DNA of 64,000 nt from Escherichia coli (GTDB lineage: Bacteria > Pseudomonadota > Gammaproteobacteria > Enterobacterales > Enterobacteriaceae). Every line of letters starts with the position of its first letter. Within the stretch, counting starts at the first letter, position 1. This document shows, one piece after another, positions 1,002-58,761 of the stretch. Made by a program: the position numbers and the translations under genes. The notes under the pieces were generated by a model. That model was not told where the DNA came from and made no database searches. It saw only the letters and a list, made by a program, of their open reading frames with translations. The DNA lies in NCBI RefSeq assembly GCF_041248615.1, contig NZ_CP158426.1, one strand, 5' to 3'.

Positions 1002-3686
1002 ATGGATAAAAAATTACTGGCTCTTTTGATCCTGGCGAGTCTCAGCCCGGCAAAGGCGACATTAACCAAAATTCCCGCTGGGTTTGAGGTTATTGCTCAG
1101 GGACAGCAGGAGTATATCGAGGTTTATTTCGCAGGGAAAAGTCTCGGTAAATATTATGCAATGGTTAATCTTGACACCGTAACATTTCTTGATTCAACAA
1201 GTTTATATAGCAAGCTGGAACTGGATGCGGACGACCAGAAAATATCGCGTATAGTAAAAGAAAAATTATCGCAACCGTTAGCCCGCCACGGCGAATTAGC
1301 ATGTGGTTTTGTTCGTACTGACTCAGGGTGTGGCTTTCTTAATACCGATACAGTGGAAATAATTTTCAACGATGAAGAGAGTTCGGCAACGTTATTTCTT
1401 AATCCGCAATGGAGTTCTGCTTTCGACGCGAAGTCATTATATTTAAATCCGGACAAAAATACGGTTAATGCCTTTATACATCAGCAAGACATCAATGTCC
1501 TGGCACAAGATGATTACCAGTCGTTGTCTGTTCAGGGTAACGGTGCGCTGGGAATAACAGAAAATAGCTATATTGGCGCACATTGGAATTTCAATGGTTA
1601 TGATGCAGATGATGTCAGTGACAGTAATGCTGATGTCAGCGATCTCTATTATCGTTATGATTTTTTACGTCGTTATTATGTGCAGGCGGGGCGCATGGAC
1701 AACCGCACGCTATTTAATGCACAAGGCGGGAACTTTACCTTTAACTTTCTGCCACTCGGTGCAATCGATGGGATGCGTATCGGGTCGACACTTAGCTATT
1801 TAAACCAGGCGCAAAGCCAGCAAGGGACGCCAGTAATGGTCCTGCTTTCGCGTAATTCTCGCGTTGACGCTTATCGTAATGAACAGCTACTGGGATCGTT
1901 TTATCTCAATAGTGGTTCGCAATTTATTGATACCAGTTCCTTTCCGCCAGGCAGCTACAGCGTGGCATTAAAAGTCTACGAAAATAACCAACTTACCCGC
2001 ACCGAGCTTGTGCCGTTTACCAAAACAGGCGGTCTGACAGATGGAAATGTGCAATGGTTTTTACAGGCAGGTAAAACCACATCACAGGTTTCTGATGATG
2101 AAAGCTCAGCTTATCAACTAGGGGTACGCCTGCCACTACACCCGCAATATGAGCTCTATGCAGGCCTGGCGAATGCCGATGATGTGAATTCATTCGAACT
2201 CGGTAATAACTGGACGTCGAGTTTAGGCGGGGCGGGGAATCTTGCTATAAGCGCCAGCCTGTTCCGTAATGATGACGGCGGCAAAGGTGATATGCAGCAG
2301 GCAAACTGGAGCAATCCGGGATGGCCGACGTTGGGCTTTTATCGGACCAACTCTGACGGCGATGCTTGTACAACCGACAGCAGAGAGAGCTACAACGCCT
2401 TAAGCTGTTATGAAAGCATTTCCGCGACGGTTTCACAGAATCTTGTTGGCTGGAATATGATGTTGGGTTATACCCGCACACAAAATAACACCGATGATAG
2501 TCTGCGTTGGGATAAACAGCAGAGCTTTGAAAATAACTATCTTCGCCAGACAACAGCGCAAAGTATCTCTGAAACTGTACAACTTAGTGCTTCCCGCGCT
2601 TTTGTGATGCGTGACTGGATTTTGAGTACTTCTGTTGGTGTTTTCCATCGTAATGACAACGGTGGTGATAATGACGACAACGGCTTGTACTTGTCGTTTT
2701 CGTTATCTGACACGCCAACGATGGACAGCAATAACAACAGCCATTCAACCAATGTTTCTACGGATTATCGTTATAGCGATCAGGATGGTGATCAAACGTC
2801 ATGGCAGTTATCGCATACCTTTTATAACGATTCATTCAGCCATAAAGAGCTTGGCGTAACCGTCGGTGGTCTGAACACAGATACCATAAACAGCGCGGTT
2901 AACGGGCGTTGGGATGGTCAGTACGGAAATGTCTACGCTACCGTGTCTGACAGTTATGATCGTAAGAATCATGATCATCTCTCGGCCTTTACAGGTACTT
3001 ACAGCTCCACGCTGGCAGTCAGTCGCTATGGCGTTAATTTGGGGGCCAGCGGTACAGAAGATTTGCTGGGGGCGGTGTTGGTAGATGTGAAAGGATTCTC
3101 TGAACAGGATGAGGAGAGTCAGGATCTGCAACTCGAAGCGCGGGTAGCAGGCAGCAGAACATTGCAACTTGGTCAAAGCGACAGTGTGTTGTTCCCTTAT
3201 CCTGGATTTCAGTCTGGTTTTGTTGAGGTCAACGACAGTAGCCAGGGCAACCAGCAAGGCACAACAAACATCATTAACGGTGCAGGGAATCGTGAATTAA
3301 TGTTGTTGCCTGGCAAGCTGCGCTATCGCGAAGTGTCAGCCAGCTTTAATTACAACTATATCGGTCGCTTGTTATTGCCAGCATCGGTAGAGAAATTCCC
3401 GCTGGTTGGTCTGAACAGCGCCATGTTACTGGTCGCTGAAGATGGCGGATTTACACTTGAAATTAACGGTAGCGAAAAAGAGCTATATCTCCTGTCGGGG
3501 CAGCAATTCCTTAAGTGTCCGCTTAGTGTTGTGAAGAAACGCGCCAGCATTCGTTACAGCGGGGATGTGAATTGTAGTGTCGTGAGTTATTCGCAATTAC
3601 CGGAGTCCATTCAGGTTCAGGCGCAGTTAAAACAGCCTAAATTACGTGGAAACGTTCAGACGGCGCAAAGGGAGGTTGCACCATGA
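1002..3686 (+). CDS. fimbrial outer-membrane usher (CfaC/CooC-like)
   Basis: About 895 aa with signal peptide (MDKKLLALLILASLSPAKA); size and position match class 5 ushers. Start moved to the ATG at 1002 (AGGG 5 nt upstream) rather than the ORF-track ATG at 984. Confidence 0.6.
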   Translation: MDKKLLALLILASLSPAKATLTKIPAGFEVIAQGQQEYIEVYFAGKSLGKYYAMVNLDTVTFLDSTSLYSKLELDADDQKISRIVKEKLSQPLARHGELACGFVRTDSGCGFLNTDTVEIIFNDEESSATLFLNPQWSSAFDAKSLYLNPDKNTVNAFIHQQDINVLAQDDYQSLSVQGNGALGITENSYIGAHWNFNGYDADDVSDSNADVSDLYYRYDFLRRYYVQAGRMDNRTLFNAQGGNFTFNFLPLGAIDGMRIGSTLSYLNQAQSQQGTPVMVLLSRNSRVDAYRNEQLLGSFYLNSGSQFIDTSSFPPGSYSVALKVYENNQLTRTELVPFTKTGGLTDGNVQWFLQAGKTTSQVSDDESSAYQLGVRLPLHPQYELYAGLANADDVNSFELGNNWTSSLGGAGNLAISASLFRNDDGGKGDMQQANWSNPGWPTLGFYRTNSDGDACTTDSRESYNALSCYESISATVSQNLVGWNMMLGYTRTQNNTDDSLRWDKQQSFENNYLRQTTAQSISETVQLSASRAFVMRDWILSTSVGVFHRNDNGGDNDDNGLYLSFSLSDTPTMDSNNNSHSTNVSTDYRYSDQDGDQTSWQLSHTFYNDSFSHKELGVTVGGLNTDTINSAVNGRWDGQYGNVYATVSDSYDRKNHDHLSAFTGTYSSTLAVSRYGVNLGASGTEDLLGAVLVDVKGFSEQDEESQDLQLEARVAGSRTLQLGQSDSVLFPYPGFQSGFVEVNDSSQGNQQGTTNIINGAGNRELMLLPGKLRYREVSASFNYNYIGRLLLPASVEKFPLVGLNSAMLLVAEDGGFTLEINGSEKELYLLSGQQFLKCPLSVVKKRASIRYSGDVNCSVVSYSQLPESIQVQAQLKQPKLRGNVQTAQREVAP

Positions 3687-10171: not shown

Positions 10172-11416
10172 TTAATTACGCAGGGCGCTATTTGCCAGAC
10201 GATCGTCTTCTGCCTGGCAAGCTGCCGCAGTGAACAGCACGTCAGTTGAAGAGTTCAGCGCGGTTTCGCAAGAGTCCTGCAATACGCCGATGATAAAGCC
10301 GACGGCAACCACCTGCATGGCGATATCGTTCGAAATACCGAACATATTACAGGCCAGTGGGATCAGCAGCAGAGAACCCCCCGCCACGCCGGATGCGCCA
10401 CAGGCACACAGAGAAGCCACTACGCTCAACAGCAGCGCTGTGGGCAGATCGACCGGAATACCCAGCGTATTAACCGCAGCCAGCGTCAACACGGTAATGG
10501 TGATTGCTGCGCCCGCCATATTGATGGTGGCACCCAGCGGAATAGAAACGGAATAGGTATCGCGATCCAGATTCAGCTTTTCACAAAGCGCCATATTCAC
10601 CGGAATGTTCGCCGCAGAGCTGCGGGTGAAGAAGGCGTACACGCCGCTTTCGCGCAGGCACAGCAGCACCAGCGGGAACGGGTTACGACGAATTTTCCAC
10701 CACACCAGCAAGGGGTTAACCACCAGCGCCACCAGCAGCATACAGCCAACCAGCACGACCAGCAGTTGCGCGTAGCCCCACAGTGTGGAGAAACCGGTGG
10801 TTGCCAGGGTAGAAGAAACCAGACCAAAAATACCGATCGGTGCGAAGCGAATGACCAGTTTCACCATAAAGGTGACGGCATTCGACATATCGTTGACCAG
10901 GTTTTTGGTTGTCTCGTTACCGTGACGCAGTGCGAAACCGAGGCCAATTGCCCACACCAGGATCCCGATGTAGTTACCTTTCAGCAGCGCGTCGATGGGG
11001 TTGGAAACCATGCTCATTACCAGCCCGCGCATCACTTCGACAATGCCTGACGGCGGCGAAATATCACCCGCGCTACTGGACAAGTGCAGGGTAGAAGGGA
11101 AGGCAAAGCTGAAGACTACTGCGGCCAGAGCAGCAGAGAAGGTACCCAGCAGATAGAGGAACAAAATAGGGCGGATATTGGTTTTCTGCCCGTGCTGGTG
11201 GTTAGCAATAGATGCCATTACCAGCATCAACACCAGGATGGGGGCAACGGCTTTCAGTGCGCCGACGAACAAAGTACCTAACAGACCAACAGCTTCCGCC
11301 GCGGGTTTTGAGATCCATGCCAGAAGAATCCCCAGAACAAGGCCGACCAGGATTTGTTTTACCAGGCTGCCATGAGCCAGACGCCGGAATAGCCCCGGTG
11401 AACGTTGCGTAGTCAT
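10172..11416 (-). CDS. sstT: serine/threonine:Na+ symporter
   Basis: 414 aa, [21 protein letters not shown]; DAACS-family transporter. Confidence 0.92.
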
Positions 11417-11689
11417 TTTTCGATCCTTTCATTGTGTTGTCGCACATCCCTGGTGCGTTCTGTCGACGCGTCTTTCAGGATGTAACAAAGTGTTTGCAAG
11501 GTCGAGTATAAGGAAAGTTACAGCTTCGGAAAGCGAAAAATGCTGGATTTTAAAGAGAGGTCATATTTTGCAACTTAATGGTTACATTTATTTGACATAA
11601 ACAGAGGGAAGGACTGGCTACTAAGGCTGATTAGATAACATATGGGCAAAACTATTTGGAATATGAGAACGGTTGCGCTCTTTTAATGT

Positions 11690-11935
11690 GCTATGCCATA
11701 TAAAGTCACTGGCGCAGGGAGCGCGCAGGGGGCGGCCAATCGCCGCCGCCCCCTGCACCCCCAGGCTCTGGCGAACAAAATCGCCGCTGCGCGGTTCCCT
11801 CAGCTTATCCCTTGCGGCTACCGGGTCGGGCGCAAGGGAACGTCCCTGTAAGATGCCCCCTCGCCGCGCATCCATGCGCGTCGCCCCGGCCTCCAGGGAA
11901 CGCTTCGGCGATTTTGACGCCACCAACACCCGTGC
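11690..11935. repeat. GC-rich palindromic intergenic repeat region (box-type repeat; family not assigned)
   Basis: Nested inverted repeats such as GCGCAGGGGGCGGCC...GCCGCCCCCTGCACCC and TCCCTTGCGGCT...GGCGCAAGGGA in an intergenic gap; overlapping ORFs on both strands are treated as artefacts. Confidence 0.35.
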
Positions 11936-12031
11936 GGTCTTTTTGTAAAGAGCTATAAGCCGATTACATAATTAATAGCTCACCTTTGTCTGGAATGAGT
12001 TATCTCTAGGAATGGCTTAATATACAGCGAA

Positions 12032-12997
12032 TCATTCTCCCCGCTGCTTATCATGCCGATAATTCACCCAGGCGTTGATAATAAATGTCATCACCAGAAT
12101 GCCAAACACCACGCCCAGCGAGACGGCGATTGGAATATGGTAGAAGTCGACAATCAGCATCTTGATACCGATAAACACCAGAATCACCGCCAGGCCATAT
12201 TTGAGCATCGAGAAACGTTCTGCTACGCCCGCCAGCAGGAAATACATCGCACGCAGGCCGAGGATCGCAAAGAGGTTTGAGGTCAGCACAATGAACGGGT
12301 CAGTGGTCACGGCGAAGATAGCCGGAATGCTATCCACGGCGAAAATCACGTCGCTCAATTCCACCAGAATCAGCACCAGCATCAGCGGCGTGGCATACAG
12401 CAAGCCATTTTTACGCACAAAGAAATGCTCGTTGTCGATGGTGTCGGTCATACGCAAATGACCGCGTAGCCAGCGCACCAGCGGCTTGTCGCCAATGCCT
12501 GATTCATCTTCATGGGCCAGCGCCATCTTCACGCCGGTAAACAGCAGGAAGGCACCGAAGATATACAGGATCCAGTCGAACTGCGAAATCAGCCAACTGC
12601 CAGTGAAGATCATGATGGTACGCAGAACAATCGCCCCGAGTACGCCATACACCAGCACGCGCCGTTGTAACGCCGCCGGAACAGAGAAATAGCTGAACAA
12701 CATCAGCCAGACAAAGACGTTATCGACCGCCAGCGATTTCTCAATCAGATAACCCGTGAGAAAGGCCAGTGCCTGTGGATCGGCAACGGCGCGACCTTCG
12801 GTTTGCACCAGATACCACCAGAAAGCGGCGTTAAACAGTAACGACAGCGTCACCCAGACCAGCGACCAGGCCGCAGCCTGTTTCATGGTCATGCCATGTG
12901 CCCCACGACGCCCCTGCAACAACAGGTCGATAGCCAGCATAATGGCGACAACAACAGCGAATCCGCCCCATAGCAACGGCGTGCCGACAGTATTCAT
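12032..12997 (-). CDS. alx: TerC-family membrane protein Alx
   Basis: 321 aa, [29 protein letters not shown]. Confidence 0.9.
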
Positions 12998-13200
12998 AGA
13001 AGTTCCTTACACATAAAAAAACGGCCAACGTCGGAAGACGTCAGCCGCTGCTTTTTATGCATAGACCTCGCCTTCCGGCAAGGTCTCACTTACAACAAAA
13101 AAGGAATACGTCTGCGTATTCCTTTCGGGTTGCCCGGTGACCGGATGTGGTTTTGCACACATCGTAATGACGATCGACCGACAATGAAGTTACTCCCCTT
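12998..13200 (-). ncRNA. alx 5' leader (pH-responsive RNA element, SraF region); boundaries approximate
   Basis: Long structured untranslated region directly upstream of alx in the ygjR-alx gap, where K-12 carries the alkaline-responsive leader RNA. Called from position and K-12 knowledge, not from a structure model. Confidence 0.4.
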
Positions 13201-13279
13201 TGCAGGTAACAAAGTATGACAGACCATTCAGCCAGTCAATGGTCTGTTACATACCTTTTACACTGTTTTACTTTGGCAA

Positions 13280-14266
13280 TTATAGTTTTACGCTATCTGC
13301 CGGAAAAATCACCCCAGTCTGGCTGCGGATCTCGGTCAGCAGTTTGGCGGTGATGCGACTGACCGCCAGCCCTGGATGATCCACCAGATGCTCATCCACC
13401 AGGGTAGCGAACAGCTCTGCTTCGTAGAGCATGGTATTAATATGCTGCGGTTGGGTGAGATCCTGCATCTGGCTGCCACGCGGCACAAAACACACTTTCT
13501 GGCATTCAGACAGTTTTTCAATCACCAGCGATCCCGCTTCGCCCTGAATCTCGCTTGCCAGGACAGAATCGCTCACTTTTGAGTGCTGCAACGTAACGCT
13601 GAAATCACCGTAATCCATCACCACCACGCCGTGGGCATCTACGCCGCTTGCCAACAAACTGGCGGTTGCCTGCACGCTTTTCGGCTCACCAAATAACGCC
13701 ACCGCTGACGCCAGACAGTAAAAGCCGATATCCATAATTGAACCGTTAGAGAATGCCGGATTAAAGGTGTTGGGATTCTCACCATCCAGGTAACGTTGAT
13801 ACCGCGAGGAATACTGGCAATAGTTGAAAAAGACTTTACGCAATTTGCCGACTTTCGGCAGCGCCTGGCGCAGCAAATAAAAGTTCGGCAGGCAGGCGGT
13901 TTTAAATGCCTCAAACAGCACCACCTGATTTTCCCGCGCACAGGCAATGGCGGCATCCACTTCCGCCAGATTCGACGCCAGCGGTTTCTCGCAAATCACA
14001 TGAATTTTATGGCTAAGGAAAAGTTGTGTCTGGGAAAAGTGCAGGGCATTCGGGCTGGCAATATACACCGCGTCAATGGCATCGCTTTCTGCCATCGCTT
14101 CCAGCGACGTAAACAGATGCTCGACAGAAAAATCATTGGCGAAGTGCTGGGCCTGTTCAAGGCTGCGGGAATATACGGCGGTTAACTTGTATTTACCGCT
14201 CTCATGGGCGGCCTCGACGAACTGGCGAGTGATCCAGTTCGTACCAATCACAGCGAAACGTATCAT
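13280..14266 (-). CDS. ygjR: predicted NAD(P)-dependent oxidoreductase (GFO/IDH/MocA family)
   Basis: Start set at MIRFAVIGTNWITRQF (ATG 14264-14266), 328 aa; the ORF track offers a 6-codon longer alternative from 14284. Confidence 0.85.
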   Translation of the reverse strand: MIRFAVIGTNWITRQFVEAAHESGKYKLTAVYSRSLEQAQHFANDFSVEHLFTSLEAMAESDAIDAVYIASPNALHFSQTQLFLSHKIHVICEKPLASNLAEVDAAIACARENQVVLFEAFKTACLPNFYLLRQALPKVGKLRKVFFNYCQYSSRYQRYLDGENPNTFNPAFSNGSIMDIGFYCLASAVALFGEPKSVQATASLLASGVDAHGVVVMDYGDFSVTLQHSKVSDSVLASEIQGEAGSLVIEKLSECQKVCFVPRGSQMQDLTQPQHINTMLYEAELFATLVDEHLVDHPGLAVSRITAKLLTEIRSQTGVIFPADSVKL

Positions 14267-31362: not shown

Positions 31363-32883
31363 ATGTCTTCTCATCCGTATGTCACCCAGCAAAATACCCC
31401 GCTGGCGGACGATACCACTCTGATGTCCACTACCGATCTGCAAAGCTATATCACTCATGCTAATGACACTTTTGTGCAGGTGAGCGGCTTTACCTTGCAA
31501 GAGTTACAAGGGCAGCCGCACAACATGGTGCGTCACCCGGATATGCCAAAAGCGGCGTTTGCAGATATGTGGTTCACCCTGAAAAAAGGGGAGCCCTGGA
31601 GCGGCATCGTGAAAAATCGCCGCAAAAATGGCGACCATTATTGGGTGCGGGCCAATGCGGTACCGATGGTGCGCGAGGGAAAAATCAGTGGCTATATGTC
31701 GATTCGTACCCGGGCGACGGATGAAGAGATCGCGGCGGTGGAGCCGCTGTACAAAGCGTTAAACGCCGGACGTACCAGTAAACGTATTCATAAAGGCCTG
31801 GTGGTGCGTAAAGGCTGGCTGGGTAAACTGCCTTCATTACCGCTTCGCTGGCGGGCGCGTGGCGTGATGACCCTGATGTTTATCTTGCTGGCGGTCATGC
31901 TTTGGTTTGTTGCTGCCCCGGTGGTGACGTATATCCTCTGTGCGTTAGTGGTATTGTTGGCAAGCGCCTGTTTTGAATGGCAGATTGTCCGCCCGATAGA
32001 AAATGTCGCCCGTCAGGCACTGAAGGTGGCGACCGGAGAGCGTAATAGTGTTGAGCATCTGAATCGCAGCGATGAGCTGGGGCTGACATTACGCGCGGTA
32101 GGGCAGCTTGGCCTGATGTGCCGTTGGCTAATTAACGATGTCTCAAGCCAGGTGTCCAGTGTCAGAAACGGCAGTGAGACGCTGGCGAAAGGCACCGATG
32201 AACTGAACGAACATACCCAGCAGACAGTTGATAACGTTCAGCAAACGGTGGCGACCATGAACCAAATGGCGGCGTCGGTGAAACAGAACTCTGCCACGGC
32301 GTCGGCTGCCGATAAACTTTCTATCACTGCCAGTAATGCGGCAGTGCAGGGCGGGGAGGCGATGACCACGGTGATCAAGACAATGGACGATATCGCCGAC
32401 AGTACCCAGCGCATTGGCACCATTACTTCGCTGATTAACGATATTGCGTTTCAGACCAATATTCTGGCCCTGAATGCGGCGGTGGAAGCGGCGCGTGCCG
32501 GCAAACAAGGCAAAGGTTTTGCAGTGGTGGCAGGGGAAGTGCGTCATTTAGCCAGCCGCAGCGCCAATGCTGCCAACGATATTCGCAAGCTGATTGATGC
32601 CAGTGCTGATAAGGTGCAATCCGGTTCGCAGCAGGTACATGCAGCCGGACGGACGATGGAAGATATTGTGGCACAGGTGAAAAACGTCACCCAATTGATC
32701 GCCCAGATTAGCCATTCAACGCTGGAACAGGCCGATGGGCTTTCCAGCCTGACCCGTGCAGTGGATGAGCTTAACCTCATCACCCAGAAAAATGCCGAGC
32801 TGGTGGAAGAGAGTGCGCAGGTGTCGGCGATGGTGAAACACCGCGCCAGCCGACTGGAAGACGCGGTGACGGTGCTGCATTAA
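31363..32883 (+). CDS. aer: aerotaxis receptor (PAS-FAD, HAMP, MCP signalling domain)
   Basis: 506 aa, [34 protein letters not shown]. Confidence 0.92.
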
Positions 32884-32889
32884 TCGATA

Positions 32890-32985
32890 TGCCGGATCCG
32901 GTGTTTGATACACGATGCCTGATGCGATGCTGGCGCATCTTATCAGGCCTACGGGGGGGTAGGGTACGCCGCATCCGGCAATCGG
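32890..32985. repeat. REP elements
   Basis: TGCCGGATCCGG..., ATGCTGGCGCATCTTATCAGGCCTAC and GGGTACGCCGCATCCGGCA between convergent aer and yqjI. Confidence 0.5.
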
Positions 32986-32988
32986 TGA

Positions 32989-33612
32989 TTAATCCAGTTG
33001 CGTAATATCAAAAGCGGCGCGGTCGATCACCGCAATGATCTTTTTTATTTGTGCATCAGTGATATCGCTCTGGTTGACGCGTAAATCCAGCACCGCTTTA
33101 AAATTATCCAGTGCCCGCTTCATTTGCGGGTTCTGGCGCAGCGCAGCGCCAACGCAACGCGCTTTGATGCGTTCTTCAATCATCTCTACCTGTTCGCGGT
33201 TTTCTTCCAGCCACTGCGCGCCTTGTTCGGTCAACGCAATCTGCTTCTTACCACCTTCCTCTTCGCGGATGGTAATCAGCGACTGCTCCTGCAGAAAATC
33301 CAGCGTTGGGTAGATGACGCCCGGGCTTGGGGTGTAATTCCCCTGGGTTAGATTCTCAATCGCTTTAATCAATTCGTAACCGTGGCTGTCATCGCGCGAG
33401 AGAATATCCAGAATCACCAGACGTAATTCACCGTGACCAAAGAAACGTTGCCGACGACCGCCGCCGCGACCGTGGCGACCACCGCAGCATTGACCGTGTT
33501 CATGCTGGTGACCGTGTCCGCAGTGCTCATGTTCTGACTTCTCACCTTTGCAGCAGCCTTCATGGCGTGGCTGGCCTTCATGTTTACAACACCCTTCGTG
33601 ATGATGGCTCAT
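32989..33612 (-). CDS. yqjI: PadR-family metal-responsive repressor
   Basis: 207 aa with His/Cys-rich N-terminus (HHHEGCCKHEGQPRHEGCCKGE) and PadR-type winged helix. Confidence 0.88.
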   Translation of the reverse strand: MSHHHEGCCKHEGQPRHEGCCKGEKSEHEHCGHGHQHEHGQCCGGRHGRGGGRRQRFFGHGELRLVILDILSRDDSHGYELIKAIENLTQGNYTPSPGVIYPTLDFLQEQSLITIREEEGGKKQIALTEQGAQWLEENREQVEMIEERIKARCVGAALRQNPQMKRALDNFKAVLDLRVNQSDITDAQIKKIIAVIDRAAFDITQLD

Positions 33613-33619
33613 ATCAGCC

Positions 33620-33885
33620 TCCTTTTGCTTAATTAGATATATCTAATTTATATCTGATATGAGCGCTCTTGCAAGTATAAAAATGATTTTTAAACGTGAA
33701 TGCACCTCACATCCAGGCCGGATAATACGTTCACGCCGCATCCGCCAGCCTTTCTACGACGTTGAATGTCTTCTCATACCTCAGATATATCAGTTCTACA
33801 AATCGCTTGCATTTATCATGATTAACAATCATTATCATTTACGAAATTTATTTAGATATATCTGATTACTATCACGAAGGCGATA
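33620..33885. promoter_or_regulatory. yqjI / yqjH divergent promoter region with Fur box and repeated palindrome TTAGATATATCT
   Basis: GATTAACAATCATTATCATT (about 33820-33839) matches the Fur box consensus GATAATGATAATCATTATC; the palindrome TTAGATATATCT occurs at about 33633-33644 and 33852-33863, next to each start codon; a REP-like unit lies at about 33706-33750. Confidence 0.5.
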
Positions 33886-33888
33886 ACA

Positions 33889-34653
33889 ATGAATAACTCC
33901 CCCCGCTACCCGCAGCGCGTTCGCAATGATCTGCGCTTCCGTGAACTGACTGTGCTACGCGTTGAGCGTATTAGCGCCGGTTTTCAGCGCATTGTCCTTG
34001 GCGGCGAGGCGCTGGACGGTTTTACATCGCGCGGCTTTGACGATCACAGCAAACTCTTCTTTCCTCAATCTGATGCTCACTTTGTGCCGCCAACGGTAAC
34101 GGAAGAGGGTATCGTCTGGCCGGAAGGACCACGCCCACCGTCGCGTGACTATACGCCGCTGTATGACGAACTACGCCATGAACTGGCGATTGATTTCTTT
34201 ATTCACGAAGGTGGCGTCGCCAGCAGCTGGGCAATGCAGGCGCAACCGGGCGATAAACTTACGGTGGCAGGTCCGCGCGGTTCGCTGGTGGTGCCAGAGG
34301 ATTACGCGTATCAGCTGTATGTCTGCGATGAATCCGGAATGCCCGCACTGCGCCGCCGCCTGGAAACGTTGAGCAAACTTGCCGTTAAACCGCAAGTTAG
34401 CGCACTGGTTAGCGTGCGGGATCACGCCTGCCAGGATTATCTCGCGCACCTTGATGGTTTTAATATCGAATGGCTGGCGCATGATGAGCAGGCGGTAGAT
34501 GCGCGTCTGGCGCAGATGCAAATCCCTGCCGATGATTACTTCATCTGGATAACCGGCGAAGGCAAAGTCGTTAAGAATTTAAGCCGCCGCTTTGAAGCGG
34601 AACAGTATGATCCACAGCGGGTACGTGCAGCGGCTTACTGGCACGCAAAGTAA
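33889..34653 (+). CDS. yqjH: NADPH-dependent ferric-siderophore reductase (siderophore-interacting protein family)
   Basis: 254 aa, MNNSPRYPQRVRNDLRFRELTVLRVERISAGFQRIVLGG. Confidence 0.88.
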   Translation: MNNSPRYPQRVRNDLRFRELTVLRVERISAGFQRIVLGGEALDGFTSRGFDDHSKLFFPQSDAHFVPPTVTEEGIVWPEGPRPPSRDYTPLYDELRHELAIDFFIHEGGVASSWAMQAQPGDKLTVAGPRGSLVVPEDYAYQLYVCDESGMPALRRRLETLSKLAVKPQVSALVSVRDHACQDYLAHLDGFNIEWLAHDEQAVDARLAQMQIPADDYFIWITGEGKVVKNLSRRFEAEQYDPQRVRAAAYWHAK

Positions 34654-34659
34654 CTGATA

Positions 34660-34702
34660 TATAAAAAGAAAAAGGCTGATGATTTCTCGTCAGCCTTTGC
34701 TA
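34660..34702 (-). terminator. rho-independent terminator downstream of the tRNA fragment
   Basis: Minus-strand hairpin AAAGGCTGACGAGAAATCATCAGCCTTT followed by a T-run, directly 3' of the tRNA 3' end. Confidence 0.55.
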
Positions 34703-34706
34703 TATC

Positions 34707-34753
34707 TGGTGGCCCCTGCTGGACTTGAACCAGCGACCAAGCGATTATGAGTC
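34707..34753 (-). tRNA. ileX: 3'-terminal 47-nt fragment of a CAU-anticodon tRNA (ileX-type tRNA-Ile2); not a complete gene; candidate island att site
   Basis: Revcomp reads GACTCATAATCGCTTGGTCGCTGGTTCAAGTCCAGCAGGGGCCACCA (anticodon loop with CAU, T-arm, acceptor 3' strand, CCA); upstream sequence cannot pair as a 5' acceptor strand, so the gene is truncated at the anticodon stem. Confidence 0.7.
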
Positions 34754-34879
34754 ATGAGGCAAGTTCGTTCTATATTGTTTTTGTTTGTTCGTGATTGCTT
34801 TATTAGTTGTTTGTAATCAATAAATTATGTGATTTTCCCTGTCTCCGCTTGGTTCCGTTTTTTCTTCATTGTACGATCG

Positions 34880-34903
34880 TTACCTGACCCATTACCTGAC
34901 CCA
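34880..34903 (+). repeat. perfect tandem 12-bp direct repeat TTACCTGACCCA x2 (candidate integrase arm-type sites)
   Basis: Two adjacent identical copies about 50 bp upstream of the integrase start, inside the att-proximal region. Confidence 0.4.
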
Positions 34904-34949
34904 AAATCACGAGTTATTCTGATTGTTACTGGTTTAGAAAAGAGGTTCT

Positions 34950-36266
34950 ATGGCCGTCAATCTTACTGAAACAGCCATCCGAGCATTGAAAGCAAAAAAG
35001 ACATCGTTCTATGTCTGGAGCAACAGCTCTCAACGTGGCACTGGACGACTTGGTGTCAAAGTTCAGCCTTCTGGCAGCAAGATTTTCTATTTCCGCTATT
35101 ACGTGGAAAAAGGGAAAAAAGAAAGATTCATTCAATTGGGTATATGGCCTGAGATGAAACTGGCCACAGCGAATGAACTGGCAAAAAAGTATGGTGCCTG
35201 GCTCATTGAAGGAAAGGCTCCCCAGGCAGAACTGGAACGACAACAGTTTGCAGAACAGCAGCGGATACAACTCCATCAATCACAGGGCTCATTTGAAGCA
35301 TTGATTCATGGTTATGTTAACAAAATGAAAATTGATAATAAGAGGACATGGCAGGATGTTCTGAAACGCCTTGAAAATGAATGCTATACAGTGATCCCCC
35401 GTGAAACTAAAGCTAAAGATGTGACTTCCGGACAGATTAAACATATCCTGGCCGGGATCATTCAGCGCGGTGCTGTGGTTCACTCTAACCGGATCCGTTC
35501 TTACCTGATGGCTGCATTTAACTATGGACTGAAAGCAGATAACGATCCGATGAACACAAGTGTAGGGATTACTTTTGGGCTGGAGGCAAATCCGGTGTCA
35601 GTGATACCGAAACAGTCATCTGCTGAAAAAGTCGGTGATACCTGGCTGACACTTGAAGAGTTGCGTTTTCTAATGGAACATTTTGCTGAAGCAACCAACG
35701 TTGGATTATTGATGCAACATTTGATCCGATTCTGTATCTATACCGGAGGGCAACGTCCTTTCGAAATGATCGCCAGTCAGTGGTGTGATGTTGATTTTCA
35801 ACAAAAAACGCTGCTGGTGACTGCTGATGTCTCTAAAAATAAACGAGAGCATTTGATACCGTTGACTGAATCAGCATTACAGGAATTATCCTGTGTGCAG
35901 GAGTTAACAAAAGAAAAATCCAGCCCTTACATTTTTCCACTTTCGACTAATGGTAAGCGTCCGGTTCGTACGGACAGTCTGGCTCGCGCTATCATGTATT
36001 TCCGGGCTTTTAATCCTGACTTTAAAATTTTTACAGCACGTGACTTACGTCGGACCTGTAAAACGTTAATGGGAGAAGCTGGGATCAGTAAGGAAATCCG
36101 CGATCGTATTCAAAATCATGCGTTGAACGATGTCAGTTCAAAACATTATGATCGATACGATTATTTGCCAGAAAAACGCAGAGCACTTGAGATCTGGGAG
36201 GACCGGGTTAATAACTATCAACAGCAAACAGGCAATAATGTTGTCAATCTGTTTGGCAGAAGGTGA
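34950..36266 (+). CDS. tyrosine site-specific integrase (P4-type)
   Basis: 438 aa; N-terminal arm-binding-like region (KVQPSGSKIFYFRYYVEKGKK); C-terminal catalytic-region motifs (HDLRRT..., ...HYDRYDY); good ribosome-binding site AAAAGAGG. Confidence 0.88.
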   Translation: MAVNLTETAIRALKAKKTSFYVWSNSSQRGTGRLGVKVQPSGSKIFYFRYYVEKGKKERFIQLGIWPEMKLATANELAKKYGAWLIEGKAPQAELERQQFAEQQRIQLHQSQGSFEALIHGYVNKMKIDNKRTWQDVLKRLENECYTVIPRETKAKDVTSGQIKHILAGIIQRGAVVHSNRIRSYLMAAFNYGLKADNDPMNTSVGITFGLEANPVSVIPKQSSAEKVGDTWLTLEELRFLMEHFAEATNVGLLMQHLIRFCIYTGGQRPFEMIASQWCDVDFQQKTLLVTADVSKNKREHLIPLTESALQELSCVQELTKEKSSPYIFPLSTNGKRPVRTDSLARAIMYFRAFNPDFKIFTARDLRRTCKTLMGEAGISKEIRDRIQNHALNDVSSKHYDRYDYLPEKRRALEIWEDRVNNYQQQTGNNVVNLFGRR

Positions 36267-36395
36267 GGGAGTTCCTGGTTGCTGTACGAATTGTGTACAA
36301 TTGATGGGTATTGTTGATGCACTTGGTTCTTGTATTGTTTACTATAATTATTGAGGTAAATTTTCGTGCCGGTATTACTCAGAGGGGATTCAAAA

Positions 36396-36992
36396 ATGGC
36401 TGTAATTCCAATGTCTTACTCCCCTGCTACTGTAGCTCGTCGTTTTTCGATACTGGATGGAGTAACTATTCAGGGCGTGCTTTACCAGATCATCTGGGAT
36501 CCAAAGACTCCGTTTGCTGCGGTAATCGAAGCTGCACCTTCTGTTATTGATGGTGATGTTCGCCATAAGGTTGTTGCCACTCTGGAGCTTCAGCGTCGTC
36601 CCCGGCTTGAAGGCGTGTTTGTCCAGAAATTCTGGGAAGAACAGGATGTTGCTCAGATTGAAGGGATTGTTGTCGATGGCGCTGTACGTGATGTTGGTCT
36701 TGCAACGTTTGTTTATGAAACGATAGTCACAAAAGCGGGCGTTGTACTATTAAGTGATAACGAGCAATATGAAGGAGGTAAAGCTCTCTGGCAGCATATT
36801 GCGCGTCGTTCAACGAATCTGAAGGTGTTTATTTTAGATACTGATTCCGCACGGTATTACCCGTTTGATGGCGAACGGATCAGTTATGACGGGAAAAGCA
36901 TCCCGGAATCAGAAATCTGGAGTGAACATCCTGAGCGAAACAGACACGCTGTCGTTCTTGTGGCTGAATCTGTTAATGGTAAAGCCGCATAA
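36396..36992 (+). CDS. hypothetical protein (possible GNAT-like fold, unverified)
   Basis: 198 aa from the ATG with AGAGGGGA ribosome-binding site (ORF track starts 10 codons earlier at GTG); segment IEGIVVDGAVRDVGLATFVYETIV loosely resembles GNAT motif A; no confident family assignment. Confidence 0.5.
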   Translation: MAVIPMSYSPATVARRFSILDGVTIQGVLYQIIWDPKTPFAAVIEAAPSVIDGDVRHKVVATLELQRRPRLEGVFVQKFWEEQDVAQIEGIVVDGAVRDVGLATFVYETIVTKAGVVLLSDNEQYEGGKALWQHIARRSTNLKVFILDTDSARYYPFDGERISYDGKSIPESEIWSEHPERNRHAVVLVAESVNGKAA

Positions 36993-37074
36993 TTTGCTGA
37001 GTGTCTCATTTTTTGAGATCTTGCTGGAAAGTCTCCTTTGGGGATAGCGAACTGCTATCCCCTTTCTCAGTGAG

Positions 37075-38679
37075 TTACTGTTCGACCAGACATTTTCCCC
37101 ATAAAGGTCGTATCGAGTATCTATCTTCGCTATATGGATTTATTTTATTTTTTTCCCTCTGTGCTATCAGCAACGTGTCGATCTCATCCTTAATAATGTG
37201 TTGAACTGCTTGACGGTAACGGTTAAGCGAAGTGTCACTGATATCTTGTGGAAGTTGTAGACTGCCATCTGCCTTGACAAGTTCATTCACACCATCTTTA
37301 ATTCTGCGTCCCTGACCATCAGGTATACCTTCATTCAGATCATAGCCTTTTAGTCCTGCAAGACGAATATTCACGTCAATCTTTTCTGTACGTATCTTTT
37401 TGTTACTTACCAACAGAATTTTATTGGCGTTATACCATTTTTCAAATATTTCCAGTTGTTTCATGATGTTTGTGAAGTTATTCAGTTCGCTCCTGAATTC
37501 AATAGATTTTCTAATTTTACGCTCTTTTGCATCAATGTTTATTCCTGGATAATTTATTTCCATTTTTAACGGTTCTGTGTATGCCTGTTGCAGGCAATCA
37601 GCAAGATTCATTGCTGCATCCTGCAGGGTATTGGTATAAATCAGTTTCAGAAGTTCATCACGCTGTATAGTGATTTGACAATAGTCTTTTTCCCATGCGG
37701 TGGTGTTTTCAATCGTGTCACTTTCATCGGAAATAATTGTTGTGAACTTCCAGGTGTAACGAATAAAATCATTTCCTTTAAAATATTGCACTAATTTATT
37801 TAACCATTCATATATTTCCAGAGCATAAAGTTTAACGTATCCATCATATATTATCTTTGTTGCATTTTTGTTGGCTAGCGAAAACATTTTGTCCACGAAT
37901 TCTGTACGCCCGATTGTTAGCAATTGTTTTCTAAGTTTACTCACATCGTTAGTATCTGGTTTCTCACAATTCCAGGGACTTTTGTATTCATTTTCAAAAG
38001 GAGAAAGCCATTCAGGAATCTCTGTTTCTGAGTGATAGCAGTTGTTAATAGCCAAACCAAGGGTTCTGGCAAGTATCGCTGATTCATCAATTTGATGGTA
38101 TCGGTTCAGTTGTTCCAGTAATTCTTTAGTACATGAGTGCGCAACAGAAAGATCCTGATGGCAATATCCTTGTCGAACCAGAGCGGGAAGTGGTGAGCAA
38201 TGAGCTTTACAATCTGTCAGAATATTGAACAAATCGTTTCTGACGAATTCTTCCATCTCAGGTGTTTTCCAGCCACCACTATTTTGGCCGACAAATTTTG
38301 CTGTTGGTTCCCTGTTCATATCTCCCCAGGTTTTCAGGCTGACGAGTCTGTTATCAAAACCATTGTATAAATGGCACATAACCTGAAAAGCAGCATACAG
38401 ATCTTTAGATAGTGGATTATCGGTCTCACTTATGGAGTAGTTCTCTCTGTTTTTCTCTAAAATACTTTGGAGTTTTGTGTTAGCGCGTAATGCCGAGAGA
38501 ATCCGATGTTGTTCATCAAACCAAGGACGATATTCTGGATCCAGATACAATCTGCGTGCTTTGAAAATGAGTAGAAGCAACTGTTCGGAAACAGCTTCAT
38601 GTATGTGGGGAAACGGCATGGAGGTGCCGGATAAAACACGATAGTACGGGTGGTTTGTTTTTACCTTTTTAGTTACCAT
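37075..38679 (-). CDS. hypothetical protein, 534 aa, no recognisable domain
   Basis: Long uninterrupted ORF in an AT-rich segment flanked by long AT-rich non-coding DNA; no Walker A motif; one Rx4H element (RQGYCH) is insufficient for a HEPN call. Confidence 0.6.
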   Translation of the reverse strand: MVTKKVKTNHPYYRVLSGTSMPFPHIHEAVSEQLLLLIFKARRLYLDPEYRPWFDEQHRILSALRANTKLQSILEKNRENYSISETDNPLSKDLYAAFQVMCHLYNGFDNRLVSLKTWGDMNREPTAKFVGQNSGGWKTPEMEEFVRNDLFNILTDCKAHCSPLPALVRQGYCHQDLSVAHSCTKELLEQLNRYHQIDESAILARTLGLAINNCYHSETEIPEWLSPFENEYKSPWNCEKPDTNDVSKLRKQLLTIGRTEFVDKMFSLANKNATKIIYDGYVKLYALEIYEWLNKLVQYFKGNDFIRYTWKFTTIISDESDTIENTTAWEKDYCQITIQRDELLKLIYTNTLQDAAMNLADCLQQAYTEPLKMEINYPGINIDAKERKIRKSIEFRSELNNFTNIMKQLEIFEKWYNANKILLVSNKKIRTEKIDVNIRLAGLKGYDLNEGIPDGQGRRIKDGVNELVKADGSLQLPQDISDTSLNRYRQAVQHIIKDEIDTLLIAQREKNKINPYSEDRYSIRPLWGKCLVEQ

Positions 38680-39458
38680 AATGTTAAATTCTTCCGTCTA
38701 TTGCATAGCTGTTTCCAGTAGAGAAACTTGATACAGTCCTTTGTCAGGACATTGATACAGAGTTAACAGCCTCTACGAAATGGGAATCAGTTATGCAGTG
38801 GCATTATACGATGCTGAATCTAATACGATATCCTTAGCGTTTATTCCTGATTTTTTTACGAGCATTCCCTTTTGTTGCATATTGCTCAGGACGCAAATGA
38901 TTTTACGGTTATAGCCCTCTACAGTCACGTCACTTTCATCTGAAAATATGTATCGTTTTCATTCAATTATTATCTTTTGTCTGCACTTTAGCTTTAGAAA
39001 GTTGGCAAAAATCAACTCCCTCTTACAAGTTCTATTATCGCCAGAAGATAATTTTGTGAACTTCGTCACGTTTTCAAACTAATGTTGTGGGGGCTTTTCT
39101 GGGGAGAATTTTTGGTCACTACCCCTCCTCTTGATATCATAGATTATAACAAGATTTTTTTTGTTTTTGTCTGCATAAAATAACCTACGAATATTGTGAT
39201 TTTGATTTTTATTTTGTATACCAAAAAGCATTGTTTAAGTTATTTTTATATTGTGACTTTCTTTGTTGTTATTGTGTTATTAGAAGTCAGTTAATTAAAT
39301 CATTTCTCGCAATTTGATTTCTTGGTTGTGCAAATGTATTGTTTTGCTCGTGAGTTGCTGGTGCTGTTCAACAGCATACCACTACAGATAGATGTAGTGA
39401 TTTGAGCAGCTCACATGCATATACAATCTGAAAATCATGAATATATAAGGAGAGCAAT

Positions 39459-39686
39459 ATGTGGAAGCCGTTAAGAGATGAGAACCGTTTATCAATTTTG
39501 AAGATCTATGGATACACCTGTGACAGACTGGTACGAGAAAAGGAACGCCAGAAAATTACGTCTATTTCTCGTTCACAAGCCTGGAAACTGGAACGTGAAG
39601 GAAAATTCCCGCCACGTAAAACTATTGGAAAGAAATCCTGTGGGTGGTTATTAAGTGATCTATTGTGGTGGATTAGTCAGTATTAA
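39459..39686 (+). CDS. AlpA-family phage/island transcriptional regulator
   Basis: 75 aa; pattern RLV...ISRSQAW.LEREGKFP...GKKSCGW fits the AlpA (prophage CP4-57 regulatory) fold; ribosome-binding site TAAGGAGAG. Confidence 0.75.
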   Translation: MWKPLRDENRLSILKIYGYTCDRLVREKERQKITSISRSQAWKLEREGKFPPRKTIGKKSCGWLLSDLLWWISQY

Positions 39687-39748
39687 CCTTATAGTATCAG
39701 AATAATATATATTTCTATATTTTAATTTTATAATTAAAAAGGAGTTTC

Positions 39749-40495
39749 ATGATGAAACGTGTCTCTTTCTCTCTTGCAGAAACATATGAAGCTGATGTAA
39801 TTAAAAAGTATCAGCATTTAAAAAAATGCTCATTTTCAGCAGCGATTAAAGAGTGTTTAAAGCTAGGGGCTCCTGTTTTAAACAGGATAAATGAAAATAT
39901 TGCTGCTATAACTGATATAGAGGATAAGCTACGTCAGTTTTTTAATGAGGAACCATTTGTGCAACGGACAAAGCCTGAAATAACAAAAGGAGAGTTTTTT
40001 CATAGCATTTATAAATCGCATATCAAATATGAATATGATGTTCTCGATAGAAAGATATTTCCTCATGAAAGCACCAGAAATGCTATGGGAGTTGCAGAGA
40101 AAAAGGGAATTAAAGAGAATGCGACCTTAATGCTGGAATATTATAAAGTTGAGAAGGCAATTTGTATTTACACGAACAGAAAAGTTTCCCATACCCTGAA
40201 TCGTGCAGGAGGGTTTTATAAAACCATTCTGATTAAAACCAGTGTTTTTGGGGATTATTTTTTTGACTTTTGCAATTCAGTTTGCCTGCCGATAGATGAG
40301 TTGATTGAGTATGGTACGAAAGAAACAGTGAGGCGACATCAGATTCGTAGTACAGGATTTTGTACTTTTCATATTCCGATTTTTTATATCAATAATAAGG
40401 CTGTAATAGTGCCTGTTCTGAGAACAGAGGAAGTTTCACAAAGTTCCAGAACAGGTGGAGATGTTATTATTATTAACCCATTTGAAGATGAATGA
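39749..40495 (+). CDS. hypothetical protein
   Basis: 248 aa, AT-rich codon usage, ribosome-binding site AAAAGGAG; no family recognised. Confidence 0.55.
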   Translation: MMKRVSFSLAETYEADVIKKYQHLKKCSFSAAIKECLKLGAPVLNRINENIAAITDIEDKLRQFFNEEPFVQRTKPEITKGEFFHSIYKSHIKYEYDVLDRKIFPHESTRNAMGVAEKKGIKENATLMLEYYKVEKAICIYTNRKVSHTLNRAGGFYKTILIKTSVFGDYFFDFCNSVCLPIDELIEYGTKETVRRHQIRSTGFCTFHIPIFYINNKAVIVPVLRTEEVSQSSRTGGDVIIINPFEDE

Positions 40496-40716
40496 TTATG
40501 GCCCGCGTAGATTTATTCATAACCCAGAAATCGTGGTGTAAATGATGAACAGAAACCGCTTTCTGAGGTTAAAGAGAGCAATCATTACCCGGGAGTGGCC
40601 AACTCTTTTATCGAGTACTTTTCCGATGTATCTGGAGAGCCTCCCTTAGAAAAGAGTAATGCGACTCAGGAAAAAACAGGTTCAATAATTAATTCATGAC
40701 ACCAGTTTGAGGCATT

Positions 40717-41277
40717 ATGGCGAGTTTTGCATACATAGACTCTGAAAAATGGTCAAAACTTAATCGCTTAAAATCCATGATTCAGAGATATTTTAAAGAA
40801 CCACTATTGCAGTTAACAGGCGAATTGGGTCGCCCGGATTATACTCTGGCAGACAGAAAACGGTTAGTTCGACTCCTGACGCAGGATATGCAAAGGGGTG
40901 ATATTCTGATTACTAAATCGTTAACTTGTTTTGGTAATACGCCGGAAAAAATACAGGAGGTTTTATCTTTAAGTATCAGACAAGGTATTAATATTTGCTT
41001 TTTTACGTCATCAGAGTTGCCGGATGGTGATGATATTCCTGTGGTACTCACCGGGATGATTTTACCTACAGATATTAGAGGAAAAATTCCCGACATCAGT
41101 ATCCGGAAAATTAAAAGAAAACCAGGAAGGAAAGAAGGGAGTATTCATAGTAAAAATATCAGACAGTTGAAATTGCAGGGGTTCAGTCAGTCACAAACAG
41201 CCAGAAAATTAAGCATCAGTTTATCCACTGTAAAAAGACACTGGGATAAAGGTATTGTTGATCTAACTGCAGAGTAA
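40717..41277 (+). CDS. hypothetical protein with C-terminal resolvase/invertase-type HTH
   Basis: 186 aa; C-terminus QGFSQSQTARKLSISLSTVKRHW resembles the HTH of serine recombinases; the N-terminal region lacks an obvious catalytic serine motif, so likely a regulator or degenerate recombinase. Confidence 0.5.
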   Translation: MASFAYIDSEKWSKLNRLKSMIQRYFKEPLLQLTGELGRPDYTLADRKRLVRLLTQDMQRGDILITKSLTCFGNTPEKIQEVLSLSIRQGINICFFTSSELPDGDDIPVVLTGMILPTDIRGKIPDISIRKIKRKPGRKEGSIHSKNIRQLKLQGFSQSQTARKLSISLSTVKRHWDKGIVDLTAE

Positions 41278-41473
41278 CATTTTATAGTCCTTGTAGCTAT
41301 TGGCAATGGAGTTATAAATACATGTGCGTTGGATAGGTAATATATATTATATCTGTGATGTATAGTATATGTGTAATGATGGATATGATGTACTAATAGA
41401 GCTAATGGTATTCTGATACCAAATAATTAGTTGTGTGTAGATCATAACTCTGTTTAATGTTTTAGAACGTTCT

Positions 41474-41558
41474 AATGTAACTGTGTAACATCATCCTGTT
41501 CTCTAATGTAACAATAGGCAGTAGCGTTTTTCTTAATTGACGCCCAGAGGGTTATATA
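41474..41558. repeat. intergenic repeats: direct repeat TCTAATGTAAC x2 and perfect palindrome CCCAGAGGG-TTATATAT-CCCTCTGGG
   Basis: Read directly in the 380-bp AT-rich gap upstream of the first YagK/YfjJ-like gene; coordinates approximate. Confidence 0.45.
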
Positions 41559-41658
41559 TCCCTCTGGGAACTACTGATACGAATATTAATATCTGCTTCT
41601 GTTGTGTATTGGGTAGGTTAACTATTAGCTTATCTCTGAAAGCAAAAGGAATATTAAC

Positions 41659-42273: not shown

Positions 42274-42300
42274 CCTATTGTAACTGTAAGGTGATTTATT

Positions 42301-42867: not shown

Positions 42868-42974
42868 CGACGTCAGGTGATGCATAAGGGCCTTTCGCTG
42901 AGAGGCCCTGTTTACACAATTAAATAAGTCGAGCCCGACCAGCAATTTTGACGTTGACGGCAGGATTATTGAGG

Positions 42975-56012: not shown

Positions 56013-58761
<2,749 letters not shown>

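Follow-up and report, generated by a model that had tools for sequence, protein, structure and literature searches.

A GC-rich block of palindromes in the sstT-alx gap of Escherichia coli is the known repeat TRIP1d

A GC-rich palindromic block between sstT and alx

We analyzed a 64-kb stretch of E. coli DNA (contig NZ_CP158426.1), here called the window, in which sstT and alx are neighbors on the minus strand; sstT starts at position 11416 and alx stops at 12032. Within the gap between the two genes lies a block with a GC content of 0.63-0.71, compared with 0.34-0.45 in the flanks. Delimited by homology, the unit has 264 bp and 65.9% GC, and the sequences on its two sides have 39.6% and 35.4% GC (Table 1). 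A preliminary description, made from the letters of the sequence alone, had reported about 250 bp of GC-rich sequence with nested inverted repeats at this place, and both observations hold. A repeat finder returned eleven inverted-repeat pairs in the block, among them perfect 12-bp hairpin arms (11725-11736 and 11745-11756) and a long-range inverted pair of 16 nt (11776-11791 and 11901-11916). Further inverted-repeat hairpins occupy 11862-11883 and 11808-11839. Both strands fold far more stably than shuffled sequence (z = -4.66 and -4.68; 0 of 200 dinucleotide shuffles were as stable). For the strand that carries the G-quadruplex (G4) motif, the minimum free energy is -145 kcal/mol (z = -4.7).

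The extent first given for the block, 11690-11935, was right as to place and wrong at the left edge: the similarity to other copies begins 18 bp further out, at 11672. On the opposite side, homology to the type found between yohP and dusC continues past 11935 to about 11955. In the minimum-energy fold, AAAGAGC in this extension (11947-11953) pairs with GCTCTTT near the other end (11677-11683). The preliminary description had also noted that the block does not match the REP consensus. Consistent with this, scanning 11300-13400 against Rfam with a cutoff of E <= 10 gave no match to the REP-derived family naRNA4. As a positive control for REP, the REP beside cdd in K-12 gave a sub-threshold naRNA4 match (31.4 bits, E = 0.037).

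Table 1. Features of the sstT-alx gap, in window coordinates
Feature	Position	Strand	Basis or remark
Variable intergenic cassette: TRIP1d plus unrelated filler	11600..12031		Comparison of the window, K-12 and E. whittamii
TRIP1d repeat unit	11672..11935		Locus spacing as published; homology to the aqpZ-lysO and yohP-dusC copies
Short homology extension with terminal complement	11936..11955		BLAST with yohP-dusC (TRIP1c-type) copies
Hairpin A, perfect 12-bp GC stem GCAGGGGGCGGC / GCCGCCCCCTGC, 8-nt loop	11725..11756	-	Overlaps the G4 motif
G-quadruplex motif GGGGGTGCAGGGGGCGGCGG, exact	11743..11762	-	One match in 64 kb, none expected
Three-way-junction core with long stem P1 (arms 11900-11922 and 11769-11792)	11769..11922	-	Consensus of 20 copies, pair counts
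Hairpin C, containing UUACAGGGACGU at 11840-11851	11828..11860	-	Consensus fold, pair counts
Hairpin B, invariant CAUGGAUG apex, loop UGGA at 11871-11874	11862..11883	-	Stem pairs compensatory, loop constant
Spurious 102-aa ORF, 'hypothetical protein' in some RefSeq genomes	11621..11929	-	Stops in most copies
Spurious 91-aa ORF	11673..11948	+	Closed in most copies

The block is TRIP1d

TRIP1 repeats were described by Rudd (1999) and divided into types TRIP1a-e by Li et al. (2024; PMC10888264). The published TRIP1d is 264 bp long, is separated from the alx stop by 96 bp and from the sstT start by 255 bp, downstream of the one gene and upstream of the other, is 89% identical to TRIP1a and occurs in 23% of genomes (PMC10888264). 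Applied to the window, this spacing and length correspond precisely to 11672-11935. We therefore have before us an element that has already been described, and no new kind of element has to be proposed. The same study gives a GC content of 62-65% for TRIP1 and a fold of -145.37 kcal/mol, termed 'double-Y', for TRIP1d, and places 99% of about 16,000 TRIP1 copies at only five fixed loci (PMC10888264). The window copy agrees with the family in its full-length homology, its type-specific locus, its high GC content and its very stable fold. For instance, over about 267 bp it is 87-91% identical to the K-12 copies in the aqpZ-lysO and yohP-dusC gaps (L009 2516-2782 and L010 2123-2407), and to others.

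The preliminary description had raised the possibility of a different intergenic repeat family and had proposed to look for copies elsewhere in the genome. That possibility proved correct. Of 5426 complete E. coli genomes searched with the block by megablast, 5425 have TRIP1, at a median of three places per genome and a maximum of five. The lower-identity matches sit in the aqpZ-lysO and yohP-dusC spacers, and K-12 has a copy at both of these loci. Roughly 1588 records are at least 95% identical to the window copy, and overall TRIP1d occurs in ~23-29% of E. coli genomes. As it is missing from about 70% of E. coli, TRIP1d cannot be essential. A 95%-identical TRIP1d also lies beside alx in MOD1-EC7003, which belongs to another species-level lineage of Escherichia. 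Outside Escherichia, TRIP1 was not found when one genome per species was scanned for exact 18-mers; the remaining hits were chance matches and two contaminant contigs. This result differs from the statement that RRS, the name under which two of the copies have been studied, is widely conserved in enterobacteria (Pham et al.).

Function of the sister copies and orientation of the window copy

Two of the sister copies are known as 'replication risk sequences' (RRS) from the work of Pham, Cox, Goodman and colleagues: TRIP1a is RRS-lysO, at aqpZ-lysO, and TRIP1c is RRS-dusC, at yohP-dusC (Pham et al. 2023, 2024; Kusi-Appauh et al. 2026 preprint). One strand of the RRS has the G-quadruplex-forming sequence 5'-GGGGGTGCAGGGGGCGGCGG-3' (Pham et al.). 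In vitro, this G4 strand is a block to Pol I, II and IV. Where it is the lagging-strand template, the replisome leaves single-stranded DNA (ssDNA) behind as it passes, in a gap that can reach ~2 kb; RecA and SSB load onto this gap wherever the RRS is placed. When the RRS is inverted, no RecA/SSB peak is seen in vivo; gap frequency is ~66% and gap size is about half, which is put down to the weaker block that the C-strand poses. The two RRS form a symmetric pair, ~650 kb either side of dif, that flanks the terminus region. Experimentally, a function of the TRIP1/RRS family has been shown at the DNA level only.

This DNA-level mechanism of the paralogues is the best-supported one for TRIP1d as well. 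In the family, once the duplex is unwound, the G-rich strand folds into a G-quadruplex and very stable hairpins, and the folded strand stalls DNA polymerases. Where the G-rich strand serves as lagging-strand template, an ssDNA gap stays behind after replication, onto which SSB and RecA load. The window copy retains all structural features, among them the 20-mer, which is without mismatch and on the minus strand. In K-12, alx and sstT lie on the plus strand at 3.239 Mb. This is in the left replichore, whose lagging-strand template is the minus strand; the window plus strand corresponds to the K-12 minus strand and would thus have the same role. Together with the plus-strand GC skew across the window, which is modest (+0.029), the synteny with K-12 therefore points to the window plus strand as the lagging-strand template. 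We infer that the window copy is in the 'inverted' orientation, with its G4 strand as the leading-strand template. Applied to both K-12 RRS, the same synteny reasoning gives the published lagging-template orientation.

A G4 motif on the leading-strand template predicts weak gap formation at alx-sstT, probably through the complementary C-strand. Since inverted RRS give no peak in vivo, the effect of TRIP1d on replication may even be nil. The position also differs from that of the RRS pair, ~650 kb from dif, as alx-sstT maps to 3.2395 Mb in K-12. With dif at ~1.59 Mb on the K-12 map, the distance is ~1.65 Mb. Taken together, TRIP1d is very probably a structure-forming DNA element of the TRIP1/RRS family that acts at this locus as a weak gap trigger at most. 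It could in addition offer dispersed homology for chromosomal rearrangement, and it would lie where transcription reading through from alx passes.

A fold maintained by compensatory changes

We predicted a consensus structure on the G4 strand from 20 distinct copies, which come from E. coli, E. albertii, E. whittamii, two further Escherichia species and two contaminant contigs. The core is a three-way junction (Table 1). Its closing stem, P1, has 20 pairs and is continued by a 5-pair extension (11895-11899 with 11808-11812); a short stem joins 11885-11891 with 11816-11825. A covariance model built from TRIP1 cores only, R1, scores 183.6 bits on 11768-11922. Standard pairs make up 99.6% of 1,455 cells in the 20 copies, compared with 42-48% in slid controls. 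Seven pairs show two-sided compensatory change, a number that 2 of 500 shuffles reach, and the two-sided changes fill 23 cells, which none of 500 shuffles reaches, although the copies are related and these counts thus overstate their independence.

Three of the compensatory pairs are in hairpin B and set TRIP1d apart from all other types; the stem takes the forms CGCCGCGCAT..ATGCGCGTCG and CAGCCCACAT..ATGTGGGCTG. The others are one pair in hairpin C, one in the closing stem and two in the GC hairpin A, where both pairs changed from C-G to A-U in the copies from E. whittamii alx-sstT (L064) and from yohP-dusC of Escherichia sp. E1V33 (L065). Seven compensatory pairs in 20 copies indicate that the TRIP1 fold is under selection. 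Clearly, it is the hairpins, beyond the G4 alone, that selection has maintained. The covariation suits the folding of unwound ssDNA and of RNA equally well. One-sided changes that keep a G-U pair occur in eight columns if the G4 strand is the one that folds and in three for the other strand; this asymmetry in favor of the G4 strand is suggestive but not significant, and the fold had been derived on the G4 strand in the first place.

The fold also bears on the idea that TRIP1d is a functionless passenger, kept by recent ancestry and by occasional gene conversion from the functional RRS. Its presence in only a minority of E. coli genomes fits this idea, as do the other alleles that stand in its place, including a K-12 type at >= 99% identity in ~47% of records, and an orientation that predicts weak or absent gap formation. 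However, four of the seven compensatory pairs (the three in hairpin B and the one in hairpin C) are specific to the TRIP1d lineage and restore pairing, which is not what decay would leave, and the TRIP1d beside alx in the MOD1-EC7003 lineage also argues against it. We consider the passenger reading unlikely. With compensatory changes occurring in the very lineage whose G4 would be in the weak orientation, the pattern gives a hint of a second selected function outside the DNA-gap model.

Resemblance to the TwoAYGGAY motif and candidate CsrA sites

A new lead came from the covariance-model scan against RNA families that had been proposed at the outset. No Rfam family reached its gathering score in or near the block. 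The one notable match was sub-threshold, to TwoAYGGAY (RF01731); weak matches to MIR1437 and Zeta-pan were set aside, since they reflect no more than a GC hairpin or some short string. TwoAYGGAY is an orphan motif of gut metagenomes, Clostridia and gamma-proteobacteria (Weinberg et al. 2010), defined by two AYGGAY hairpin loops and a closing stem that is often very long, and it has been proposed to be a CsrA-binding sRNA (Gardner and Eldai). In all copies tested, the model gave a full-length alignment on the G4 strand, with 29.9 bits (E = 0.043 in a 2.1-kb search) for the window copy and 30.6-30.9 bits for three other TRIP1 copies. These scores of ~30 bits lie below the gathering score of 43 that Rfam uses for membership.

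The two elements also have an architecture in common, with a very long closing stem and two hairpins. Loop 1 of TRIP1, AUGGAU, fits AYGGAY, and loop 2, AGGGAC, departs from it at the second position; published Psychromonas TwoAYGGAY sequences include the same pair of loops. In TRIP1 the apices read CAUGGAUG, invariant while its stem covaries, and UUACAGGGAYGU, in which the part ACAGGGAYGU varies only at Y. We also ran the reverse search, with R1 against metagenome TwoAYGGAY loci, many of them confirmed by Rfam at 43-153 bits. R1 aligned over its full length to an Rfam-validated locus (L103 1355-1500; 33.9 bits, E ~1e-5) and matched a dozen GC-rich relatives, such as L096 at 36.3 bits, but these loci had been chosen by a loop pattern containing CATGGATG, so that the reciprocal score is partly built in. 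A second Rfam-validated locus, L141, gave 23.4 bits, and long GC hairpins alone reach ~26 bits (L111). R1 found none of the 150-bit gut members.

The SELEX consensus for CsrA is RUACARGGAUGU, with GGA in a loop and ACA 100% conserved. Candidate site 2, UUACAGGGACGU, agrees with it at 10 of 12 positions and lies partly inside a stem in the minimum-energy fold; the 64-kb window contains the pattern TACARGGAYGT a single time, where 0.09 matches would be expected. Candidate site 1 of TRIP1d, GCGCAUGGAUGC, agrees at 8 of 12 positions and reads GCAUGGAUGC, without the SELEX-invariant ACA. The two GGA sites are ~28 nt apart, a spacing that could suit a CsrA dimer. A spacing rule for such dimers is said to go back to work by Mercante and colleagues in 2009.

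These observations might mean that TRIP1 works mainly as RNA. In that case a transcript of the G4 strand, produced by read-through from alx, would fold into the three-way junction and, as a GC-rich relative of TwoAYGGAY, bind or sequester CsrA. Between alx and TRIP1d there is no canonical terminator; an intrinsic terminator for alx was considered within the element itself and rejected, since none of the GC hairpins is followed by a U-tract. The alignments in both directions, the shared loop pair, the agreement of site 2 with the SELEX consensus and the excess of G-U pairs on the G4 strand all point the same way. Against it stand the sub-threshold Rfam score, the gut members missed by R1, the pre-selection of the metagenome loci, the missing ACA of site 1 and a wobble asymmetry that is not significant, and hairpins of the same strand in ssDNA explain the covariation just as well. 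Moreover, no promoter or terminator was found bracketing TRIP1d (two promoter-like sites are at the level of shuffled sequence), and the orientation of TRIP1 relative to the neighboring genes varies among loci and strains. In the rows consulted of the K-12 gene-level CsrA tables, which cover genes and not intergenic sites, there are four 'No' flags (taken without their column headings) and 'NS' (no significant change) for dusC and ybjE. The YohP paper makes no mention of the yohP-dusC spacer. On balance, a mainly RNA-based function seems quite unlikely.

The link between TRIP1 and TwoAYGGAY or CsrA is, at the level of these model scores, a lead, and we did not find it in the searched literature that mentions TwoAYGGAY. 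A broader version, for which we see some chance but which we would not favor, is that TRIP1/RRS is an enterobacterial GC-rich branch of TwoAYGGAY in which the G4-strand apices CAUGGAUG and UACAGGGAYGU are CsrA-type recognition sites, as RNA or as ssDNA. If this were true, the RRS might owe their function to more than the G-quadruplex, or else the TwoAYGGAY 'RNAs' of other bacteria might be elements of replication and topology that act as DNA.

Variation at the locus

K-12, whose sstT-alx spacer the preliminary description had singled out for comparison, has a different sequence at this site: its 398-bp spacer is without TRIP1. The 183 bp beside sstT (11417-11599) are common to the window, K-12 and E. 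whittamii, and from there to the alx stop the three diverge fully. In K-12 the place is taken by another multi-copy repeat, found at a median of six places per genome, which looks like BoxC. E. whittamii has TRIP1 at alx-sstT in the opposite orientation, with a hairpin B of the TRIP1a/c type and unrelated filler. Similar changes are seen at the other loci. At aqpZ-lysO the element is inverted between K-12 and the strains FUJ80154 and E69, and at yohP-dusC between K-12 and E. whittamii, E1V33 and E69; in such inverted alleles an element of ~265-275 bp is flipped and 40-70 bp on each side are replaced. Among 18 copies, matches between flanks are confined to copies at the same locus, and no target-site duplication was found at the 18 junction pairs. 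This variation looks like replacement of whole cassettes rather than transposition.

We therefore weighed the view that TRIP1 is a non-autonomous, MITE-like mobile element that inserted independently at a few preferred intergenic sites. It would account for the multiple copies (one to five), for the short complementary ends (GCTCTTT and AAAGAGC) and for the opposite orientations and unrelated filler among lineages at alx-sstT, aqpZ-lysO and yohP-dusC. However, 99% of the copies are in five fixed loci, no transposase is associated with TRIP1, and the filler changes along with the element, as in recombinational replacement of a cassette and not as in clean insertion. MITEs are recognized by terminal inverted repeats together with a target-site duplication; in TRIP1 the terminal complement is only 7 nt and none of the junctions examined has a duplication. 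Mobility is an improbable explanation.

The view that the block encodes a small protein has practically no chance of being right: the two ORFs are present and PGAP puts a hypothetical protein (WP_001426202.1) on the element in some genomes, but in most paralogues and orthologues both frames are interrupted by stops or by indels that shift the frame (the 102-aa frame on the minus strand has one to four stops in 16 of 20 copies, and the 91-aa frame on the plus strand is closed in 17 of 20), neither product has a Pfam match at E <= 1, the substitutions track base-pairing and not codon structure, and open frames are expected from a palindrome of 66% GC. With no frame open across the homologues we rejected both as genes, in line with the preliminary description, which had called the long ORFs on the two strands artefactual.

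Significance

In E. coli, no programmed triggers of post-replication gaps are known apart from the sister copies. These are, moreover, essential under some conditions, which makes TRIP1d more than junk DNA. In about a quarter of natural E. coli there is one more copy, located far away from the terminus region and with the G4 apparently on the 'wrong' strand, a natural inversion experiment. Lineage-specific compensatory mutations indicate that hairpins, and not the G4 alone, are under selection. The resemblance of the core to an orphan motif predicted to bind CsrA may, like the two preceding points, be of use in work on the RRS.

Comparison with known elements

Compared with CsrB, CsrC, RsmY and RsmZ, TRIP1 likewise has GGA at hairpin apices in an ACA-GGA-UGU context. 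In contrast to the ~9-22 sites of CsrB and CsrC, it has two candidate sites, of which site 1 in TRIP1d is without ACA, and it is without a known promoter. With TwoAYGGAY it shares the very long closing stem, the three-way junction, two hairpins with AUGGAU and AGGGAY apices, several copies per genome and a full-length alignment on one consistent strand. It is GC-richer than the gut members (GC 0.44-0.51 in two alignments) and has an extra 3' GC hairpin and the G4 module.

REP/BIME and BoxC-type repeats are GC-rich, palindromic, intergenic and multi-copy like TRIP1. TRIP1 is dissimilar to them in sequence, much longer (~265 bp) and restricted to few copies at five fixed loci. To the RRS the block is homologous across the whole 222-bp RRS core, with an identical G4 20-mer and the same hairpins; it differs in lying away from the terminus-region flanks, in a G4 that would be on the leading-strand template and in being found in a minority of strains. 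Relative to other TRIP1d copies, the window copy has one extra G-G mismatch, in the hairpin C pair 11857/11832. In locus, length and stable fold it is the same as the TRIP1d of Li et al. (2024), and nothing that defines the element is different.

A polymorphic cassette in the alx-sstT spacer

The spacer between alx and sstT is a polymorphic cassette whose alleles all diverge at the same point, 183 bp upstream of sstT (see the table for the content of three alleles). The repeat that occupies the K-12 allele is found at a median of six places per genome, and about 47% of records carry this allele at ≥99% identity. RefSeq places a 100-aa "hypothetical protein", WP_001426202.1 (NZ_CM147699.1; 1432-1734 of the compared locus L003), squarely over TRIP1d, the GC-rich TRIP1-family repeat of the window allele; in all likelihood this gene annotation is spurious.

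Coordinates of the alx-sstT cassette alleles and of the RNA-family matches in the window
Feature	Location	Content or score
alx-sstT cassette, window allele	window 11600-12031	TRIP1d and filler
alx-sstT cassette, K-12 allele	L001 3547-3944	GC-rich multi-copy repeat other than TRIP1d
alx-sstT cassette, E. whittamii allele	L064 4939-5518	inverted TRIP1, filler unrelated
ALIL pseudoknot (frameshift element, IS3-type transposases)	window 55553-55669	111.7 bits
Group II intron catalytic domain	window 58196-58282	64.9 bits

Elsewhere in the window, the pseudoknot and intron matches indicate mobile elements near the right end. The GC content of positions 32001-44000 is 0.41-0.44, compared with ~0.51-0.56 elsewhere, and this segment may be of horizontal origin. 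The alx leader is usually assigned to the yybP-ykoY family; the region upstream of alx (12998-13279) did not match the Rfam yybP-ykoY (Mn/pH) leader even at E ≤ 10.

Distribution and orientation of TRIP1

An 18-mer of the element is invariant across all 20 Escherichia copies. It was absent outside the genus in an exact-match contig scan of GTDB r220 (one genome per species, loci L011-L086), a search that diverged copies could escape. According to the papers on replication risk sequences (RRS), conservation of the element extends across the enterobacteria, and the copies in Kluyvera are nearly identical.

Two TRIP1 copies lie on contigs labeled otherwise: a 583-bp "Bacillus sp." contig (L083, coverage 0.7x), whose lysO-side flank is identical to K-12, and a 2.8-kb "Proteobacteria" MAG contig (L024) with a dusC fragment. 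Both are probably E. coli contamination of the respective assemblies. In L083, a hairpin B of the TRIP1d type is joined to the lysO-side flank, and this arrangement of the sequence suggests a TRIP1a/1d recombinant.

Relative to K-12, the element is inverted at aqpZ-lysO in L004 (compared with L009) and at yohP-dusC in L063, L065 and L048 (compared with L010). Natural lineages thus carry the K-12-opposite element at both RRS loci, and "inverted" RRS would therefore be expected in many wild strains. In the inverted alleles of both loci, the 40-70 bp directly adjoining the element are also replaced; in the FUJ80154 aqpZ-lysO allele, this flank replacement removes the aqpZ terminator hairpin.

Arrangement of TwoAYGGAY elements

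Genuine copies of the orphan RNA motif TwoAYGGAY on metagenome contigs (L089, L103, L163 and L094) occur either as several copies ~1.7 kb apart, as in L089 (4297-4465, 5993-6161 and 7737-7905), or as close divergent inverted pairs, as in L103 (1029-1195, minus strand; 1347-1507, plus strand). Many of the pattern matches are located at contig ends. The behavior of TwoAYGGAY elements in these contigs is that of a dispersed repeat and not that of a single sRNA gene.
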